Below, in pieces: positions 6,957 through 64,000 of a DNA stretch of 64,000 nucleotides. A program made the position numbers and the translations under genes. The stretch comes from Octopus vulgaris (taxonomy: Eukaryota), in the NCBI GenBank assembly GCA_951406725.2, contig OX597837.1, positions 44,206,001 to 44,270,000 of the forward strand, given 5' to 3'. Position 1 is the stretch's first letter. Each line of letters begins with the position of its first letter. Under the pieces are notes generated by a model, which was not told the origin of the DNA, made no database searches, and saw only the letters and a program-made list of their open reading frames with translations.

Positions 6957-7003
6957 CCATCACTGATGAGACCAAGGAAGGTCGAAATCATGTGATCTGG
7001 TGG
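6957..7003 (+). ncRNA. Type I hammerhead ribozyme motif (intact core)
   Basis: ccatca-CTGATGA-GACC-aaggaa-GGTC-GAA-ATCA-tg-TGAT-C-tggtgg. Stem I ccatca/tggtgg, stem II GACC/GGTC, stem III ATCA/TGAT; predicted cleavage after AUC (C6997). Confidence 0.85.
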
Positions 7004-7639
7004 TCTCAGAGCTGGAGATGGCAGGGTTTTATCTCCCTGTTAGTGATATAAACAAGAATGCATTTTGCACCAAAAGCCAATATGAGAATTTCTCTCAGCG
7101 CATCTACCACAGTATAGTTTGTTCCAACAGAACATCCATGGTTAAGTGAGGATATATATGTGTGTGTATGTGTGTGGGGTGGTGGCGACCCCTGTTGTAC
7201 TATTTCGCCACAACTTTCTCTCACTCTCTCTTCCTGTTTCTTGAGTAACGCTAAGATGGACTGGCATCCCGTCCAGCTGGGGGGGGGGGACACATACGCC
7301 ACAGAAATCGGGTCTATGAGCCTGGCTAGGCTTGAAAAGGGTGCATAAATAAAAAAATTATATATATATATATCTACACACACAACGTGCTTCTTTCAGT
7401 TTCCAACCACCAAAGCCACTCACAAGGTTTTGGTTAGCCACAGGCTACAGTAGAAGACATTTGCCCAAGATGCCATGCAGCAGGACTGAACCCAGAACCA
7501 TGTGGTTGGTAAACAAGTTTCTTACTACACAGCCACGTCTGTAATTTTACATATTTCACAAACAAGGAAAGGATGTTGTTTCTTTTTTCCATCCTCATCA
7601 CTGATTCTTTGATACCGTTAATGTAAACAGTCAAGGTGA

Positions 7640-9336: not shown

Positions 9337-9737
9337 GGATCTTTTCGGTTTGAACGGCAGTTTTTAACATAATTTTAAACTTCGTATACTGGTAGAATGT
9401 GTTTATAGAATATCTTTTTCTCTTGGCTTTATTGAGAAAATTCTATGGTTTGTAAGATATTTGTTGTTTTTTTTCCTCAATTTCTGCAATTTCAACCAAT
9501 CAATGACGTCCATTGAGGTAAAAAAAAACAACATTCTGTGCCGTATGAATATGTCCCTCGTTTAAGAAACAGATTGGGTTTATTTACATTTGTGAAGGAC
9601 AGACGATACCCTTCCCCCCGCCCCTAACCCTAAAACATTGAAATGCAATAGATCGATACTAGGGTCATAATTATGGGTGACAATTTCATATGACACCGCT
9701 AGAAAAAAAATAACTGCCGTTCAAACCGAAAAGATCC
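9337..9737. mobile_element. MULE-like MITE with 9-bp target-site duplication
   Basis: TIRs GGATCTTTTCGGTTTGAACGGCAGTT / AACTGCCGTTCAAACCGAAAAGATCC; flanks caacgaggg and taacgaggg. It contains CCCTAACCCTAA; a partial copy lies at about 39261-39362. Confidence 0.8.
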
Positions 9738-12072
9738 TAACGAGGGAGTCTCAACTCGAGCATCCATGCAAATTGAGAGTAAATTTGGATGCTATTTTGA
9801 TAAAAACCAAATTTACTCTCAAACTGCAATTAACTATTTTAGAAAAACCAAGGGAAAAAAATAGGTTTGGCTGCAGAAGGCGAGTAATTATTTCCGTTGC
9901 TGTTTATTTTTAAAATTTTCGCCGATATTAGCTTCTAGAAAACTTTTTAGCGAAGTAAAAACAGGCGCAAAGTTACAAGTAAACAAAACACACACAAACA
10001 CAATATAACTTTTACTTACTTCAGTCATTAGGCTGTGGCCGTGCTGGGGCACAACCTTGAAGAATTTTAGTCGAATGAATTGACCCTCGCACTTTCTTTT
10101 TTTTTTTTTAAAGTCTGTTACTTATTTTATTGATTTCTTTTGCTGAACTGCTAAGTTACGGAGACGTCAGCACAAAGACTCTCACGCGCGCTCAACGGTT
10201 TCTTATTTCATTATTGCCCACAAGGGGCTAAACAGAGGGGACAAACAAGGAGAGAAAAAGGGATTAAGTCGATTACATTGACCCCAGTGTGTAACTGGTA
10301 CTTATCTACTCACAAGGTTTTGGTCGGCCAGAGGCTATAGTGGAAGACACTTTCTCAAGGTGTCACGCAGTGGGACCGAACCCGGAACCATGTGGTTGGG
10401 AAGCGAAAACAAGATGAACAGAACTTAGACTATAAGTGTGTATTTTTGATCACTTTTAATTGGGAGCAGTTACAAAGGTGACTCAAGAACTGAAAGTTTC
10501 GTCCATCGAACTTTTTTATACACGAAACTCTCGGCCTTCGAGTCACTTTTGTAACTTTTGACAATAATAATAATAATTCTTTCTACTATAGGCACAACAC
10601 CTGAATTTTTTTTTGGGGGGGGGGAGTGGGAGTCGATTACAACGACCCCAGTGCCCAAATGATATCTATATTATGGACCCTGTAAGGACGAAGGACAAAG
10701 TTGACCTCGGCGAAATTTGAACTCAGGATCATCATCATCATCATCATCATTATTATTAGTTCTTTCTACTAAAGGCGCAACACCTAAAATTTTGGAGTGA
10801 GTGTTAGTCGTTTACATCGACCCTAGTGCTCAACTATTATTTAATTTATCAACACTGGAAGGACGAAAGCGCAAAGTCGACCGCTGAGTAATTTGAACTC
10901 AACGTAAAGACGGACGAAATGCTGCTAAGCGTTTTATCCGGCATGCTAAAGATTCTACTGGTACCCAAATAATATTAATGATATGTGCGTGTTTACGTAT
11001 ATACGCACGGCTGTGTTATTTCTGTTGAAAAAATTATGTAAACAACAAATTCGATATTGCTTAAAACAAATCCGATTAATCACATCTTTATATCATTGAT
11101 CACCAAACGCCTAAACTTTTATCTGCGTATCTACTGAAAAACAACAAAGTTAATACATTTGTCAACACGACAATATTTGGGTGCATTGATATCGATCTCG
11201 AAAATCATCAACATGCTGACAAAACCGTTCTGCCCAATAGAACTTTCCCGCCTAAATACCAAACTCGGTAACGGAAAAGATAAAACTGACTAATGCAACA
11301 GAGACAACTTCAATATATGGACCGCATAACTAAAGAATAGTGATTAATGGTTGCTAGGTACAACGTTCGAAAGGCGGCGAAATGCCTAGTCGTATTTCCT
11401 CTGCTGCTACGTTCTGAGTTCACATCCTGCTGTTTCATAAGAGGAAGTACAATGGGATGATAACCGGATCATTTCTGATAATAGATTAATTCGATCAGAG
11501 CTGACCTGTGGTGATCAACACCACCACCAATCTTACGTCGCTAGCTTGCTAGAAACAGCAGACTAATGCACTTCTCCCTCAAATCATACACTATCATAGG
11601 CTCTTTAAAGGCACAGAACTTCTTCATTTATAAAATAACCCACCGACCCCCGCAAAAAAGTACTGATTTTCCTAATTAACACGAAATACATGTGAGCGAA
11701 AATTTTCAAAAGATCTTTATCAATATAGTAGATACTGCATTTCTTGTATTTTCCAAAATTTCAACTGATTTTAATAGAATATTCTCCCTTGTTATGGGGC
11801 GTAGATGTGCGTGCGTTATATTTTCTAATTTTAAATATCATTAAAAGAAAATAAAAAAGAACTTTTCAAACTAGACCGAGAAAGCAATTGTATAGAGAAA
11901 CTAAAATGATACCCTGAGAGGGGGGGGAAGGGTAGCAAAGCGCCCTAAAACCACATGACGAAGGGACTATTGACAAGGAAAGGAGACGAGAAGGGTGGAG
12001 AAACTAGAATGAGACCAGAACAGAGACAGAAAGAGACACGAGCAGTCTCGTGTGTCTCATGGTACTAACTTA

Positions 12073-34837: not shown

Positions 34838-35398
34838 TTGGGTTGTCCGGAAAGTTTGTGCCAATTTATAGTAGCTTACCTTTCGACTTATTTTAGAACA
34901 TTGTTGAGTCCATAAAATAGGATATGACTACACCTCCATTTAGAGAACAGTTTAAGCTATCTTTTCGTGGAAGAAGGTTTATGTTCCTATAACCTGTGTT
35001 AATTCTGTAACCCTTTAAAATGGAAGATAAGAAAGTTCATTTTCTTGATGCTTTGGGAACCAGACAAAAATTGCTGCAGCTCAGCTGGGATGTGTTACCC
35101 CACCCTCCATATTCACCAGATATTGATCCTTCGGATTTCCACTTATTCAGGTCTCTGCAGAATAGTCTTAATGGTAAAAATTTCAATTCCTTGGATGACG
35201 TAAAAGGATACCCTGATGAATTCTTTGCCATGAAACCACCTCAATTCTGTGAAGAGGGTATTTTCAAGTTAAAGGAAAGATGGAGACGCATTGTGCAACA
35301 AAATGGTTCATATTTGGTTGATTGAAAATGTAATGGCAAGAATTTATTAACCTTTTTCTTCCCTTTAAAAATCAGCACAAACTTTCCGGACAACCCAA
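34838..35398 (+). mobile_element. Internally deleted mariner (Tc1/mariner) DNA transposon
   Basis: TIRs TTGGGTTGTCCGGAAAGTTTGTGC / GCACAAACTTTCCGGACAACCCAA, with TA on the left flank. ORF 35020-35325 carries LPHPPYSPDIDPSDFHLFRSLQN (YSPDLAPSD motif) and a GIFKLKERWRRIVQQNGSY C-terminus. Confidence 0.93.
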
Positions 35399-38766: not shown

Positions 38767-39415
38767 GAGTATGAGTATCAAATGCGGTAATTCTTTGAGA
38801 GATCAATGCACAAATCACCCGAAGTCAAACCAATCGATTTCCATGGAAATATAATTACAACGCTTCCTAACATCGATACAAGATCATATATTTTGGGACG
38901 GGGGGAAAGTATAATCGACTATTTAACTAACTAGTATTTGTTTATCGTCTCCCGGCTGAATTTGAACTCAGTTCGTAACCCAAACACTGCAAGACATTTT
39001 GGTCGACCGTTTTACGAATTCTACAATTCACCGCTGTCATATTATTAATTAAATCAATTAAAAGATAATACGAATTAAAAGAATGCCTCATAGAAAAATT
39101 AAAATCAGAAAAAAAAAACCAAAACATTCAATGCCATGTTTCGAGTTTTTAGTTTAGCTTGACCTAGAAAGAAGCCTGGTTGTGTGATTAAGAAGCTGGT
39201 TTTGCAACCCACGTGGGTTCTGGTTCAGTCCCACAGGGCAGCACCTTTCACAAGTATCACACCCTAACCCTAACCCTAAAACAGATTAAAATGCAATAGA
39301 TCGATATTAGGGTCATAATTATGGGTGACAATTTCATATGACACTGCTAGAAAAAACTGCCGATATATATATATATATATATATATAGGAAAAAAGCAAC
39401 AAGAATGGATTAAAA

Positions 39416-39503
39416 TCTCGGTACAATTGTTTCGTACGAGGACATCTTTAATAAGCTACAAAAAATGCAGTAAATACAGATGGCTCGTACTCGTCAGCCG
39501 AAA
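39416..39503 (-). ncRNA. Type I hammerhead ribozyme motif (intact core, long stem II)
   Basis: Minus strand: tttcgg-CTGACGA-GTACGAG...CTCGTAC-GAA-ACAATTGT-A-ccgaga. Stem I has 6 bp; stem II is 7 bp perfect plus catct/agatg; stem III is the palindrome ACAATTGT; cleavage triplet is GUA. Confidence 0.88.
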
Positions 39504-40198
39504 AAACATCAGAGAATTCCCAAACATCAAAAGGGGTAGATACAAAAGAGGGTGTAAGATTAACTATATATATACTCTCTCACTTGTTGCCAAAATGAGA
39601 GGGTCAACACAATCCATATCTTATTTTTTTTTCTCAAACTAATTTTTGGTTTTAAGTTTTAATTAACTTGAAGAAAACAGTTTTTTTCCGTGACGTAATC
39701 GGTTTATTCATCAACAAAAGAAAAAAAACACGTCTGAAACAGCTGTAGTGAAGCCAGAACTTACACCTTACATATTAACATAGCTATATACATTTACATA
39801 GATTGGCTGCTAAGAAGAACGAAGGGTGAATACAGCAGGGAGAAGTGAGTACTAGATAACCATGTATTCTTAGAATATGTCTTATCTCTTGTAGTACTCT
39901 TATAGTCGAGCAGCTGGAATGGTCTACATCTACCACCAGCACCACCGCCGCCGTTATTCCTCAAAATCGTGGACTGACGATCACGTTAGGAATTATTATA
40001 ATTATTATTATTAAAATATGTGTGAATCGATAGGATCTACTGTAACCTTCTAAGGCGGTGCCCCAGCATGGCCACAGTCCAGTGAGGCAAACCAGTAGAA
40101 AGATATGTTGTGCGTGTTAATAACGAAATTCCATCCACACAGCATCTAAGTATGTCTCCTTGCAAACACACAAGATACACGTGCATGTGCGCGTGTAT

Positions 40199-40520
40199 GG
40201 GTACTACTAGTGAACAGTGGTCCCGGTGCGCGCACTCGCGCATCCGCGCTAGCTAGTCGTGACTAATCGATCCTAAAACGACTACCTAGCAAAGTAAATA
40301 AAACACAAAATAAATAAATTTTTTTACACAAAGTAAATAATGTTTGTTAAACAGCGGTGGTGCCCCAGCATGGCCGCGGCCTTCGGGCTAAAACATTTTA
40401 AGGGATTTTAAGGAAAGTAAATAAAAACACAAAAACACAAAGTAAGGATCGACTAGTCACGACTAGCTAGCGCGGATGCGCGAGTGCGCGCACCGGGACC
40501 ACTGTTCGCTAGTAGTACCC
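40199..40520. repeat. CpG-rich inverted repeat (76-bp arms, 2 mismatches) followed by a tandem duplication of about 121 bp to about 40715
   Basis: 40199-40274 is the reverse complement of 40445-40520. Confidence 0.9.
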
Positions 40521-41919
40521 GTGTATGTATGTATGCACGCATGCACACACTATCCTCTGTGTATACGTATACATGCCTCTGTATTTAGTGAGTGTAGTAC
40601 GCGAGTGCGCGCACCGGGACCACTGTTAGCTAGTAGTACCCGTGTATGTATGCATGCATACACACACTATCCTCTGTGTATACGTATACACGCCTCTGTA
40701 TTTAGTATGAGTGTATAGGTCCTGATATACACATAAATGAACAGACTCACACATACAGGTATTATTTATATACACACACGTATTTATACAAGTTGATTAG
40801 CTAAACGTTAACTATATTGCAAGCCATAAACATCATAAAATCTCAGTTTTCCTCTCAACACACACAGAAAAATATATAAATATATATACATACATACATA
40901 CACAACATGGACACATGAACAGTCAGGTTGTGTTAACTGACATTCCGACACTTTCTCTCTCACACATACACACACCTATGCAAACACAAGACTATATAAA
41001 ATGTAAATGCTAACACATCACTTGTTAATAAAGGTCAAACTTCATATTTTTATGTAACCTCCTGTTTCTCATATTACAAACACACATACAAACATACAGC
41101 TATGCAGATATTTTCACATATAACCACACATATATACACATGGCTTATAACAATTACAGGGTGATTCAAAAATTCTTTGCTTCATATCTATGTGTGGTGT
41201 AATCGTAATCCGAATTTATCTAATCGTTCTATCGTTATCTGCCAGCCTCTTCATCCGCCACCATCGCAAACACCAACCTAGTGTATTATAATTCCATCCA
41301 TTTCTTCAGAATAGGGAAGCTGCCACGTAGTCGTTACATATGCTAGAAAAAGCAGTCAAATCTATAAAATTAGCCCTACCATCTGGGTTTTTTTTTAAGA
41401 AAGGAAATATAAGCATTTGAATAGATAGGATGGTCATGGCTAGAATGCCTGTCTGTTTCATCAACAATGACCTGGGTCAAACAACAACAGTAACTGGGAG
41501 CATGCATGGTTGCTTCACTTGCTAGATATAGCGACCAAATCGCCCTCAGATCACACACCGCCGTTTTAAAAACGGAGACGCATTTGTTACAGAAAACATA
41601 ACAAAATAAAATATAGACTGTTTGGTCATGATTGGAACGTCTCTGATCATAGACCTGCTTCATCAGAGTAACTCGGAGCCTCTGCGTGGTCGCTAGACCT
41701 GCTAGAAAAAGGCAATCAAATGTCCTTCAAATTATATACCAACAGTCTGAGAAAAGGGGTCATATCAATGTAACCCTTAGATATCTATCCGAAAGTTGGG
41801 ATGGCCACGACTGGATTATCTCTTGAGCAGAGCTGATCTGTGGTTAAATGACAACATCAATGCAATCATTATCATACCGCAATGTCACAGTGATCCCATA
41901 AGGACACTTTGGTGCTCCA

Positions 41920-60508: not shown

Positions 60509-62917
60509 TATTGATATTCATGTTAAAAGATTTTGATCAATGTTTTAATTTAGCTATGAAGAAATATTACAAACTTAGCAGTTTCTATGGTGTGTGGGTG
60601 TGTGTAGGGGGTGTTGAAGTAGGGGAGAAGTAAGTAGACAGACCTATCTAAGCACTAAGAAACTTGCTAGTCACTTCACTGATAAAATTTATCTCTTTAG
60701 TATTTGACTTTGCATATTATGAGACTCACTTGAGCTTGTCTTGTGCCTAGTTTAAGTACACGGTGGTGGTGGTGGTGATGGGGGAATTTAAGGGTGTGAG
60801 ATTGAAGGATTTCTTCGGGTTAGTTGCCCCTGAAGCAGATATTAAGTGTTAAGAACTACTACTACTACTACTACTGTATAGAGAAATGCACTGCTTGAAC
60901 TTAAGGCACCATGACCCAGGTCAATCTAGAGCTGAAACCTCTGTACTCCCACCCCCTTTTTTCTCTATTTAATCTATTTTCATAAACTGTTTCAATGGAT
61001 ATTTCGGGGAAATACTGTTTGTGTATAATAACTTACTCTTTTACTTGTTTAAGTCATTTGACTGCGGCCATGCTGGAGCACCACCTTTTAGTTGAGCAAA
61101 TCAACCCCAGGGCTTATTCCTTGTAAGCCTGGTACTTATTCTATTGGTCTCTTTTGCTGAAGCACTAGGTTACAGGGATGTAAACACACCAGTATCGGTT
61201 GTCAAACAATGTTGGGGGGGGGGGGCACACACTCACACATACATACATACATACATACATACACACTACATACATACATACATAAATAAATACCCACCCA
61301 TCCATCCATACGTTGGGCGCAATATTTTAAATAGCGGTGCCCCAGCATGGCCACAGCTCATGAGCTGAAACTAGAATCAATCAATCAACCGTACATACAC
61401 ACGATGGGCTTCTTTCAGTTTCCGTCTACCAAATCCACTGACAAGGCTTTGGTCGGCTCAAGGCTACAGTAGAGGACACTTATTGAATTTCTCTTCCTTT
61501 ATAATATCTAAATAGTCGATATTTGGAAAAATGATTCTTTTGCAGTTTATTGAAGTCAAGAGAATGTCTGACTAAGATAATGTGTGGGGTGGGGTGGGAT
61601 TTTGTGTGTAGTGGTGTTGTGCATATGGCATCCGTGGTACCTGGGGCAAGCATCTTCTATTATATCAGGTGGGTTTGACCAGTGGAAACTGAAAGAAGCT
61701 CTGTGTGTGTGTATACCATTGTAAAGGCTAAGTGGTTAGTGTCAGGCTTGTAATCAGACAGGGGTTTCAATTCCTGGTTCAGGCTGTGTTGTTCTTGGGC
61801 AAGGCACTTTATTTCATGTTGCTCCAGTTCATTCATCCGTAGAAATGAGTTGCAATACCTATTTCTTTACTACTCACAAGGGGCTAAACACAGAGAGGAC
61901 AAACAAGGACAGACAAATGGATTAAGTCGATTACATCGACCCCAGTGCGTAACTGGTACTTATTTAATCGACCCCGAAAGGATGAAAGGCAAAGTCAACT
62001 TCGGCGGAATGTGAACTCAGAACGTAACAGCAGACGAAATACAGCTTCGCATTCTGCCCAGCGTGCTAACATTTCTGCCAGCTCACCACAGTGGTGCCAA
62101 GTTGTATCGGACTTTACCTTTCTCTTAGATAACATCAGTGGCATGGTATGCATGGGCGGCTGCTGGTCTTCCATAAACCACCTTGCCTGGGCTTGTACCT
62201 CAGAGGGGAACTTTTTAGGGACAATCCCATGACCGTCTGTGACCTAAGTGGGACTTGACCCTTGTCTAGGCTTCACATGATGGTTGTAAATGAGCATCTA
62301 TCATACCAGCAGTCGTTCATGCTCAGTATTGTGTGAAATTATGGTTGGCAACAGGAAGGGCAGTTGACCCTTTAAAATCTGCCTCAATAAAACTCTATTT
62401 TACCCCTTACAAGCATGTAAAAGTGGATGTTAAAAAAAATATATAGGCATGGCTGTGTGGAAAGGAGCTTACTTTCCAACCACATGGTTCCAGGTTCAGT
62501 CCCACTGCATTGCATCTTGGGCAAGTGTCTTCTATAGCCTCGAGCCAACCAAAGCCATGAGTGGATTTGGTAAGCGGAAACTGAAAAGAAGCCCATTGTG
62601 TGCATGTTTTTGACTGCCACTATCATCAAGGCTTGACAACTGGTGTCGGTGTGTTCTCATCACTGTGACTTAGCAGTTGGGCAAGAGAGGCTGATAAAAT
62701 AAGTGCTAGGCTTAAGTTCTGGGGTCGATTTTGTTTGAAGTCCTTCGTGTGGTGGTGCTCCAGCATGGCCACAGTCAAAAGAATGTCCTTGGGTGGCTTT
62801 TTACGATTCTCTCTCATTCTCTCTTTTTTTTTTTTTTTTTTTTTTTTCGTTACGCCAGACTTCTCCATGTCTGCCTTTTTTTAAATTTTTCTTTTTGTTT
62901 CTTTCGTTTTACTTCAG

Positions 62918-63009
62918 ATGCAAAGAAAAGAATTGAAGTGGCTAACCCCGTGGTGGAGTTGGACGGTGATGAAATGACCAGAATCATTTGGGACAAGATA
63001 AAGGAAAGA
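62918..63009 (+). CDS. IDH2: IDH2 coding exon 2
   Basis: Polypyrimidine tract and TTCAG acceptor ending at 62917; encodes (Y)[30 protein letters not shown], the N-terminal signature of eukaryotic NADP-IDH ([13 protein letters not shown]); GTAAGT donor at 63010. Confidence 0.96.
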
Positions 63010-64000
63010 GTAAGTTGGTCTTTGAGAAAGCATCTCACTCAGCTTGTGTTTCTTACCAAATTAATTATTGTTTTTATCAGAAATCATCGTCATTGTTGCT
63101 TTAACCCTTTCGTATTCAAACTAACCGCATCAGACCCAAATATTCTACCCATTTTATGTTCAGACTGGACAGATCAGGCCTCTCACACCTACCCTACAAT
63201 GTCAAGCATGGCTGTGTAGTAAGAAGTTTGCTTCCCAACCACATAGTTTCAAGCTCAGTTCCATTGCAGGGCACCTTGAGCAAGTGTCATCTACTATAAG
63301 CCTAGTGGAGGCACATGGCCTAGTGGTTAGAGCAGCGGACTCGTGGGTTCGAATCTCAGACCGGGCGATGTGTGTGTGTTTATGAGCGAAACACCTAAAC
63401 TCCACGCAGCTCCAGCAGAAGGTAATGGTGAAACTTCTGCTGACTCTTTCGCCACAACTTTCTCTCACTCTTTCCTCCCGCGTCTTGCAGCTCACCTGCG
63501 ATGGACCAGCGCCCCGTCCAGGTGGGGAACCTATACGCCAAGGAAACCGGCCCTAATGAGCCAGGCATGGCTCGAGAAGAAACAAACAACAAACTGTAAG
63601 CCTCTAGTTGACAAGCCTTGTGAGTGGAAACTGAAAGAAGCCTAATATCTGTGTTGTTGTCTCTGTCTTGACATTGCATGATGGTTGTAAACAAGCATCA
63701 ATGGTCATACTAGATGTGCACATCGTTTCCAGTCTTTTGTGAAGATATGTCATGCAGTGGTGGGGGGGGGGTCGATATTACCATTACTTGGAAATGGGTG
63801 AGGGTTGGCACATCTGGAAAGGTATCTAGCCAAGAAAAATGTATCTCAACAAATTCCATCTCTATGACAACAGGCTTCTAACAGTTTCCATCTGCCAAAT
63901 CTACTAACAGTTTTCGTCATCATGAAGCTACAGCTGAAGGCTCTTGCTCCAAATGCCATACAGTGGGATTGAACCTGTGACAACCTGGTTGGGAAGTGAA

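Follow-up and report, generated by a model that had tools for sequence, protein, structure and literature searches.

A complete hammerhead motif with a palindromic stem III at the 3' end of a high-copy, probably Penelope-like repeat of Octopus vulgaris

The minus strand of positions 39388-39565 of the window, the whole 64,000-nt stretch of DNA that was analysed, contains a complete type I hammerhead ribozyme motif with every core letter present, as established by sequence reading and by a descriptor scan. The 178 nt that carry it are a 5'-truncated copy of a high-copy repeat with a (TA)n tract on either side. The copy is likely derived from the 3' end of a Penelope-like retroelement (PLE) or of a non-coding derivative, and its ribozyme is predicted to be active only as a dimer. 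The parts of the copy and of the motif are as follows.

39388-39565, minus strand: 5'-truncated repeat copy of 178 nt, the 3' end of the element with the hammerhead (from contig depth and the shared departure at 39565)
39363-39387, no strand: (TA)12.5 adjoining the element's 3' end, likely the target site (repeat reading)
39565-39574, no strand: (TA)5 where the copy is truncated on its 5' side, probably the second half of the target tract (the family departs at 39565)
39503-39498, minus strand: 5' strand of stem I, with a U run before it and pairing with 39421-39416
39497-39491, minus strand: core C3-A9, CUGACGA (descriptor scan)
39490-39434, minus strand: stem II arm of 57 nt, with a basal helix of 39490-39484 and 39440-39434
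39433-39431, minus strand: core G12-A14, GAA (descriptor scan)
39430-39423, minus strand: palindromic stem III of 8 nt, A15.1 to U16.1, the predicted dimer interface
39422/39421, minus strand: predicted cleavage site after H17 (A39422), placed by the hammerhead consensus
39421-39416, minus strand: stem I, 3' strand, 6 bp in total with one G-U
39421-39388, minus strand: 3' tail of 34 nt from the predicted cut to (TA)n, with family depth still high at 39393

The CUGANGA, GAAA and UH elements that define a type I hammerhead are all present, and three helices surround the core with stem I open. Stems I and II are predicted to form with pair probabilities above 0.5 (0.53–0.99 in stem I and 0.95–1.0 in the basal pairs of stem II), and stem III comprises 2 bp in the monomer and 8 bp in the dimer. 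Basal stem II starts with G10.1-C11.1 and its 7 bp exceed 4 bp; beyond it the arm continues through a 1x2 loop, a 5-bp helix, a 7x8 loop and a second 5-bp helix to a U5 loop. A complete minus-strand core, a stem II region of about 57 nt and a perfectly palindromic stem III had all been described in an earlier note made from the sequence, and the descriptor scan confirmed each of them; the cut that the note had placed between 39422 and 39421 falls at the same position by the hammerhead consensus.

The descriptor scan covered both strands of the window with stem II allowed to reach 120 nt. It returned three matches, two of them with stem I of at least 4 bp and stem II of at least 3 bp, namely the present motif and one at 6963. 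When the window was shuffled block-wise with dinucleotides preserved, any match at stem I ≥6, stem II ≥4 and stem III ≥2 bp appeared in one of 300 shuffles and an equally good one in none of 300, and the 93-nt hammerhead fold has a z of -3.6. The motif searches anticipated in the note recover the motif by descriptor but not by Rfam: at gathering thresholds there was no Rfam match anywhere in the window, and none of the hammerhead models of clan CL00010, with which the element has the catalytic core in common, matched the motif at E≤10. Since this miss is probably due to the long stem II arm, it does not count against the fold. The hammerhead motif at 39388-39565 is real and beyond chance.

To follow the sequence in public data, contigs of four runs (X1, 713 contigs; X3, 374; X5, 414; X10, 22) were placed on 39374-39940 at 80% likeness. 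In three of these runs (X1, X3 and X5) the interval 39385-39565 is approximately 2,000–3,800 times deeper than the flank. Summed contig depth, which is no copy number, was 216,889 at 39425 against 57.7 in the flank beyond 39830 in X1, 13,070 against 6.55 in X3 and 47,012 against 19.9 in X5; across six bins from 39393 to 39544 it ranged from 1.5e5 to 4.4e5 in X1, again against 57.7. A depth contrast of this size indicates a large family. The sequence 39388-39760 is present in part in 20 of the 24 runs listed, under six organism labels, and half or more of its words are present in none of them. No run recorded as RNA is listed with it, which carries no information about expression. Pattern scans of metagenome, viral and prokaryote genome contigs gave no match in any of the three, as expected for an animal repeat, and within the 64-kb window the element has no second copy.

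Past 39565 the contigs of all four runs share an identical continuation. Because family copies continue there with other letters, the window copy is 5'-truncated at this point, 5' being taken in the sense of the ribozyme strand. The unit thus runs from 39388 to 39565 and not to 39610 as first described. The 8-bp complementary pair (39396-39403 and 39583-39590) that had been proposed to bracket the ribozyme exists, but a pair of this kind occurs in 182 of 1000 shuffles and its far arm lies beyond the 39565 boundary, in a different repeat. At the other end, the earlier note had the hammerhead begin right after (TA)n where a neighbouring repeat is truncated. The neighbour does stop at ~39362, while its window copy from 9622 continues, and the (TA)n does adjoin it; the tract, however, lies beyond the 3' end of the ribozyme strand, separated from the cut by 34 nt. 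In 7 of the 32 pieces listed, beside which there were 1,546 others, contigs begin at 39374-39385, inside the TA tract, and X10 record 9 has other DNA beyond it, which indicates that other copies also end in TA. Among the contigs listed, none spans the insertion junctions of the window copy. Contigs of X1 and X10 also depart from the window sequence at 39537 and share another continuation there; this departure marks a subfamily with a different upstream part and the same ribozyme end.

Family DNA upstream of 39565 covers only about 30 letters. No reverse transcriptase or endonuclease gene came within reach, and PLE membership is accordingly an inference. A stop-free plus-strand frame across the element has no relative among longer proteins, which is a weak test. 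Pfam matched none of 79 window ORFs, with reverse transcriptase and GIY-YIG domains absent among them; these ORFs comprised all 71 high-complexity frames of at least 55 aa starting in 33-48 kb and eight others, out of 312 such frames in the window. The Pfam scan is likewise a weak test because it missed even a stretch, at ~63030-63130 on the plus strand within ORF 62716-63219, whose motif resembles an exon of an NADP isocitrate dehydrogenase; neither Pfam nor a protein search matched this ORF. Similarly, the plus-strand ORF 35011-35325 resembles, by a motif, the C-terminal part of a mariner transposase and had no Pfam match at E 0.01. Overall, the window is DNA of animal type and rich in repeats, one of which is SINE-like and recurs many times.

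The differences between family copies and the window bear on how the ribozyme may work. Of 71 difference rows 40 were visible, five of which fall in the element. Two of the five, A39425G and T39428C on the plus strand, turn stem III from ACAAUUGU, the window form, into ACGAUCGU with the palindrome preserved, in all four runs. Their linkage is taken from matching depths rather than haplotypes (75,965 and 77,875 in X1, 3,693.7 and 3,693.7 in X3, 15,674 and 15,868 in X5, 24.1 and 24.1 in X10), and the paired change amounts to 14–36% of depth. Within the monomer, 39425 and 39428 sit in the 4-nt loop of stem III, flanking 2 nt, and do not pair, whereas in the dimer they pair. Self-duplex energies are -6.4 kcal/mol for ACAAUUGU and -10.0 kcal/mol for ACGAUCGU, with the single changes at -5.8 and +0.3 kcal/mol. 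This covariation represents a single subfamily event, for which template-switch repair of the palindrome might account with no selection needed. Palindromic stem III variants were noted in repeat-type motifs of Aedes in the portion available of Perreault et al. (PMC3088659), and palindrome-keeping variation thus has precedent.

Folding of one and two copies of both stem III forms was performed with ViennaRNA, using energy models without Mg2+ or tertiary contacts. In the predicted monomer, the palindrome's 3' half pairs with core residues A6-A9 (A6 is paired with probability 0.75 in the window form and 0.87 in the variant), and the probability of the A15.1-U16.1 pair falls to 0.016 and 0.001, respectively. 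When two copies were co-folded unconstrained, the minimum was a double hammerhead with an 8-bp common stem III and swapped stem I strands, lying 6.6 kcal/mol (window form) and 6.0 kcal/mol (variant) below two folded monomers. The monomer is therefore predicted to be inactive, and two copies to be active as a double hammerhead. A ribozyme that acts as a monomer, with a tertiary contact of the long stem II arm rescuing the 2-bp stem III, appears improbable. For the window form, the active monomer fold is just 2.3 kcal/mol less stable than the minimum, and invertebrate retrozymes with a short helix III cleave as monomers according to the available part of PMC7229834, but the variant increases this gap to 4.4 kcal/mol, and no convincing loop-loop pairing was identified in a search that was not systematic. 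Monomer action also leaves unexplained why both loop changes keep the palindrome.

The remaining three changes are at 39472, within an internal loop, at 39507, upstream of stem I, and at 39480, within a distal stem II helix. A39480G, at 1–27% of depth, disrupts a base pair of this helix, and no partner change is visible among the 40 of 71 rows; the core 39491-39497 shows no change among the same rows. That all five visible changes spare the 39 letters of core, stem I and basal stem II has a chance of ~0.3 by our own arithmetic. Core conservation that is visible only in part (40 of 71 rows), a single covarying event and a ribozyme activity that is only predicted would also suit a hammerhead carried as a dead passenger, the repeat being SINE-like or derived from a DNA transposon and the palindrome change a mutational accident. 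This is the least probable of the alternatives, since a complete motif beyond chance stands at the very 3' end of the family in runs of several organism labels, and both common stem III forms co-fold to the double hammerhead.

A dimer-type ribozyme accords with the hammerheads described in PLEs. In the accessible part of Cervera and de la Pena 2014 (PMC4209133), these have a longer helix II, G10.1-C11.1 and a palindromic helix III, occur mostly as solo copies and cleave weakly as dimers, and the consensus given in the supplement reads, in order, U-rich, NNN, CUGANGA, G..C, GAAAN, palindrome, NUH, NNN and AU-rich. The present motif fits this consensus, and its closest counterparts are the variants with a small palindromic helix III (e.g. 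Drosophila willistoni, Aedes aegypti and Saccoglossus kowalevskii (2); Fig. S3 of the same source). Common to both are the type I topology, flanks rich in U on the 5' side and in AU on the 3' side, G10.1-C11.1, the long basal stem II (7 bp here), the palindromic helix III and the mostly solo, truncated copies. The letter between A9 and 10.1 that the PLE consensus leads one to expect is absent here, as it is from 2 of the 56 published rows in that supplement. By eye the nearest row is Saccoglossus (2), without the extra letter after A9 and with an 8-bp stem II, a palindrome and H17 = A, although this row carries no PLE-linked mark. The arm differs: among the same 56 rows loop II spans 3–9 nt and the whole arm at most ~23 nt, against 57 nt and three helices here. 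No row of the 56 is from a cephalopod. The motif likely works like a PLE-type dimer hammerhead, and the dimer-type, PLE-like reading of the earlier note is upheld by the linked palindrome-keeping change, the predicted double-hammerhead fold and the fit to the published consensus.

The position of the motif is also PLE-like. The hammerhead lies near the 3' end, with its cut 34 nt from it, the copy is 5'-truncated at 39565, and the tail is within 30–40 bp. PLEs are mostly 5'-truncated with a 30–40-bp tail, and the Neptune and Naiad clades have a microsatellite bias, directed in Naiad to (TA)n, in the part of Craig et al. 2021 (PMC8557442) available, so the element resembles both. Unlike the element, Naiads are described there as without canonical hammerheads, and three octopus Naiad consensuses read in the supplement have 3' ends unlike the element by eye. 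Of seven short element motifs compared with the available supplement, six had no match and the seventh, of 9 letters, occurred only in an unrelated context. In the Terminons, a target-matching repeat directly follows the hammerhead (PMC6431247, as far as available), an arrangement that possibly parallels the TA end of the element.

Under a PLE origin, a sequence of events can be proposed in which the first two steps rest on predicted folds and the rest on published PLE models. In a lone RNA copy, pairing of core A6-A9 with the palindrome's 3' half would switch the ribozyme off, and two copies would pair via the 8-nt palindrome and exchange stem I strands to form the double hammerhead. A master copy between two such ends would be transcribed, its two ribozymes would excise a unit-length RNA, and this RNA, re-joined, or else one that remained uncut, would serve as a single-ribozyme template. 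A PLE reverse transcriptase/GIY-YIG protein would then nick (TA)n and copy from ~34 nt beyond the cut, and halting after 178 nt would leave the 39388-39565 copy. As this copy extends 34 nt beyond the cut site, its DNA must have been made from an RNA template that was either uncut or re-joined; a switched-off monomer would permit an uncut template. Going by the predicted folds, the lone copy itself is probably inert as long as its RNA does not encounter a second one.

Within the element no head-to-tail joint was found in the contigs, nor any tandem or terminal-repeat arrangement, although a longer unit would not show. This bears on whether the copy could be a piece of a non-LTR retrozyme. Retrozymes are short tandem repeats of 150–450 bp, non-coding and without an ORF, that form small circular RNAs via their hammerhead with the same dimer chemistry. 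Such repeats have been proposed to derive from PLE ends (PMC7229834 and bioRxiv 10.64898/2026.07.22.740005, each as available), which brings this account close to the preferred one, and they resemble the element in their type I hammerhead, in being high-copy, AT-rich and apparently non-coding, and in dimer activation, as in axolotl repeats. Retrozymes also exist as solo monomers in the accessible text of the preprint, in which only 1 of 9 retrozyme dimers cleaved, a point against the dimer activity predicted here. The ORF scans of element and window without a match would suit a retrozyme, as would the X10 contigs, which contain the element but not the flank, X10 being guessed to be an RNA run that may however be DNA. 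Nonetheless a retrozyme fragment is judged unlikely. The listed pieces pass from the 3' end into (TA)n and not into another unit, no joint falls within 39388-39565, and in the canonical hammerhead of retrozymes stem II is 4 bp long and takes part in loop-loop contacts (PMC4209133, in the part available), unlike the 57-nt arm. No tandem array was seen for the element, which lies in (TA)n and is 5'-truncated, in contrast to the retrozymes described in the available parts of the two sources named above.

The truncated end of a PLE or of its non-coding derivative thus remains the preferred reading, and the known link between hammerheads and PLEs is unchanged by it. New here is the long stem II arm; the dimer-type, PLE-like hammerhead design was already known. 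Dimer cleavage by PLE hammerheads has so far been based largely on the look of a palindromic helix III and on weak in vitro activity, and this family adds two naturally occurring, mutually compensating changes in an element of high copy number, along with a concrete predicted off-switch. The two natural stem III alleles and the off-switch make the dimer model testable, homodimer against heterodimer. An abundant family missed by Rfam, probably owing to its long stem II, also suggests undercounting in invertebrate genomes. In the available text, PLEs are reported to cover 6.83% of O. vulgaris in 190 families with ribozymes unmentioned (PMC13282606), and 235 Rfam hammerhead-1 matches are given for the giant squid (PMC6962438). 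A literature search on cephalopod hammerhead families, which covered few subscription papers and neither Repbase nor Dfam, found no description of this element.

A bolder and rather doubtful proposal is that the family is a (TA)n-targeting retroelement whose long-armed hammerhead locks itself, core on its own palindrome, with the 57-nt arm perhaps a binding site for the element's protein and concealing the ribozyme from Rfam and standard descriptors. Were this true and such arms common, some 'hammerhead-less' or 'half-core' PLE lineages would have working ribozymes, the core halves of the half-core cases lying 35–50 nt apart in the accessible part of PMC8557442. The two natural palindrome forms would then define subfamilies, with cleavage confined to dimers of copies of the same form.

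The second hammerhead, at 6957-7004 on the plus strand, is single in the window and of canonical design, with a 6-bp stem I, a 4-bp stem II and a near-palindromic stem III with G-U pairs. It matches Rfam HH9 (E 2e-4, below gathering), which the long-armed motif does not, and its best local match to the 39388-39565 element is 8 nt. On sequence comparison it is a different design unrelated to the long-armed hammerhead, in agreement with the distinction first drawn between the two. The coexistence of several ribozyme-bearing retroelement lineages, as the note had proposed, is supported in part by this, the 6957 motif being a candidate for a second such family.

Several other repeats surround the element. 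The left neighbour, at 9600-9990 and 39268-39362, opens with telomere-like CCCTAA units and has a hairpin with 29-bp arms at 9767-9828 inside the longer copy; no terminal inverted repeat, the feature expected from the label 'MITE', stood out in it. To the right, 39574-39752 (plus strand) is a separate lower-copy repeat with kept blocks at ~39575-39612 and ~39722-39752 and a variable middle, and contigs connect both blocks across other letters, the right block reaching ~200 times flank depth in X1. This block contains a palindromic GAAAC-AGCT-GTA half core (39736) without an upstream CUGANGA in this copy, and other members of the repeat might have a full hammerhead core. The stretch 39680-39752 (plus strand) was considered as an inverted relative of the element and rejected: scores as high were reached by 975 of 2000 shuffles and by 886 of 2109 tiles of the window, the tail comparison was matched by 279 of 2000 shuffles, and no CUGANGA lies upstream. 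Further right, a CpG-rich region at 40199-40715 consists of an inverted pair (40199-40274 and 40445-40520, 97%) followed by a 117-bp tandem duplication, and looks like a fold-back or MITE insertion.
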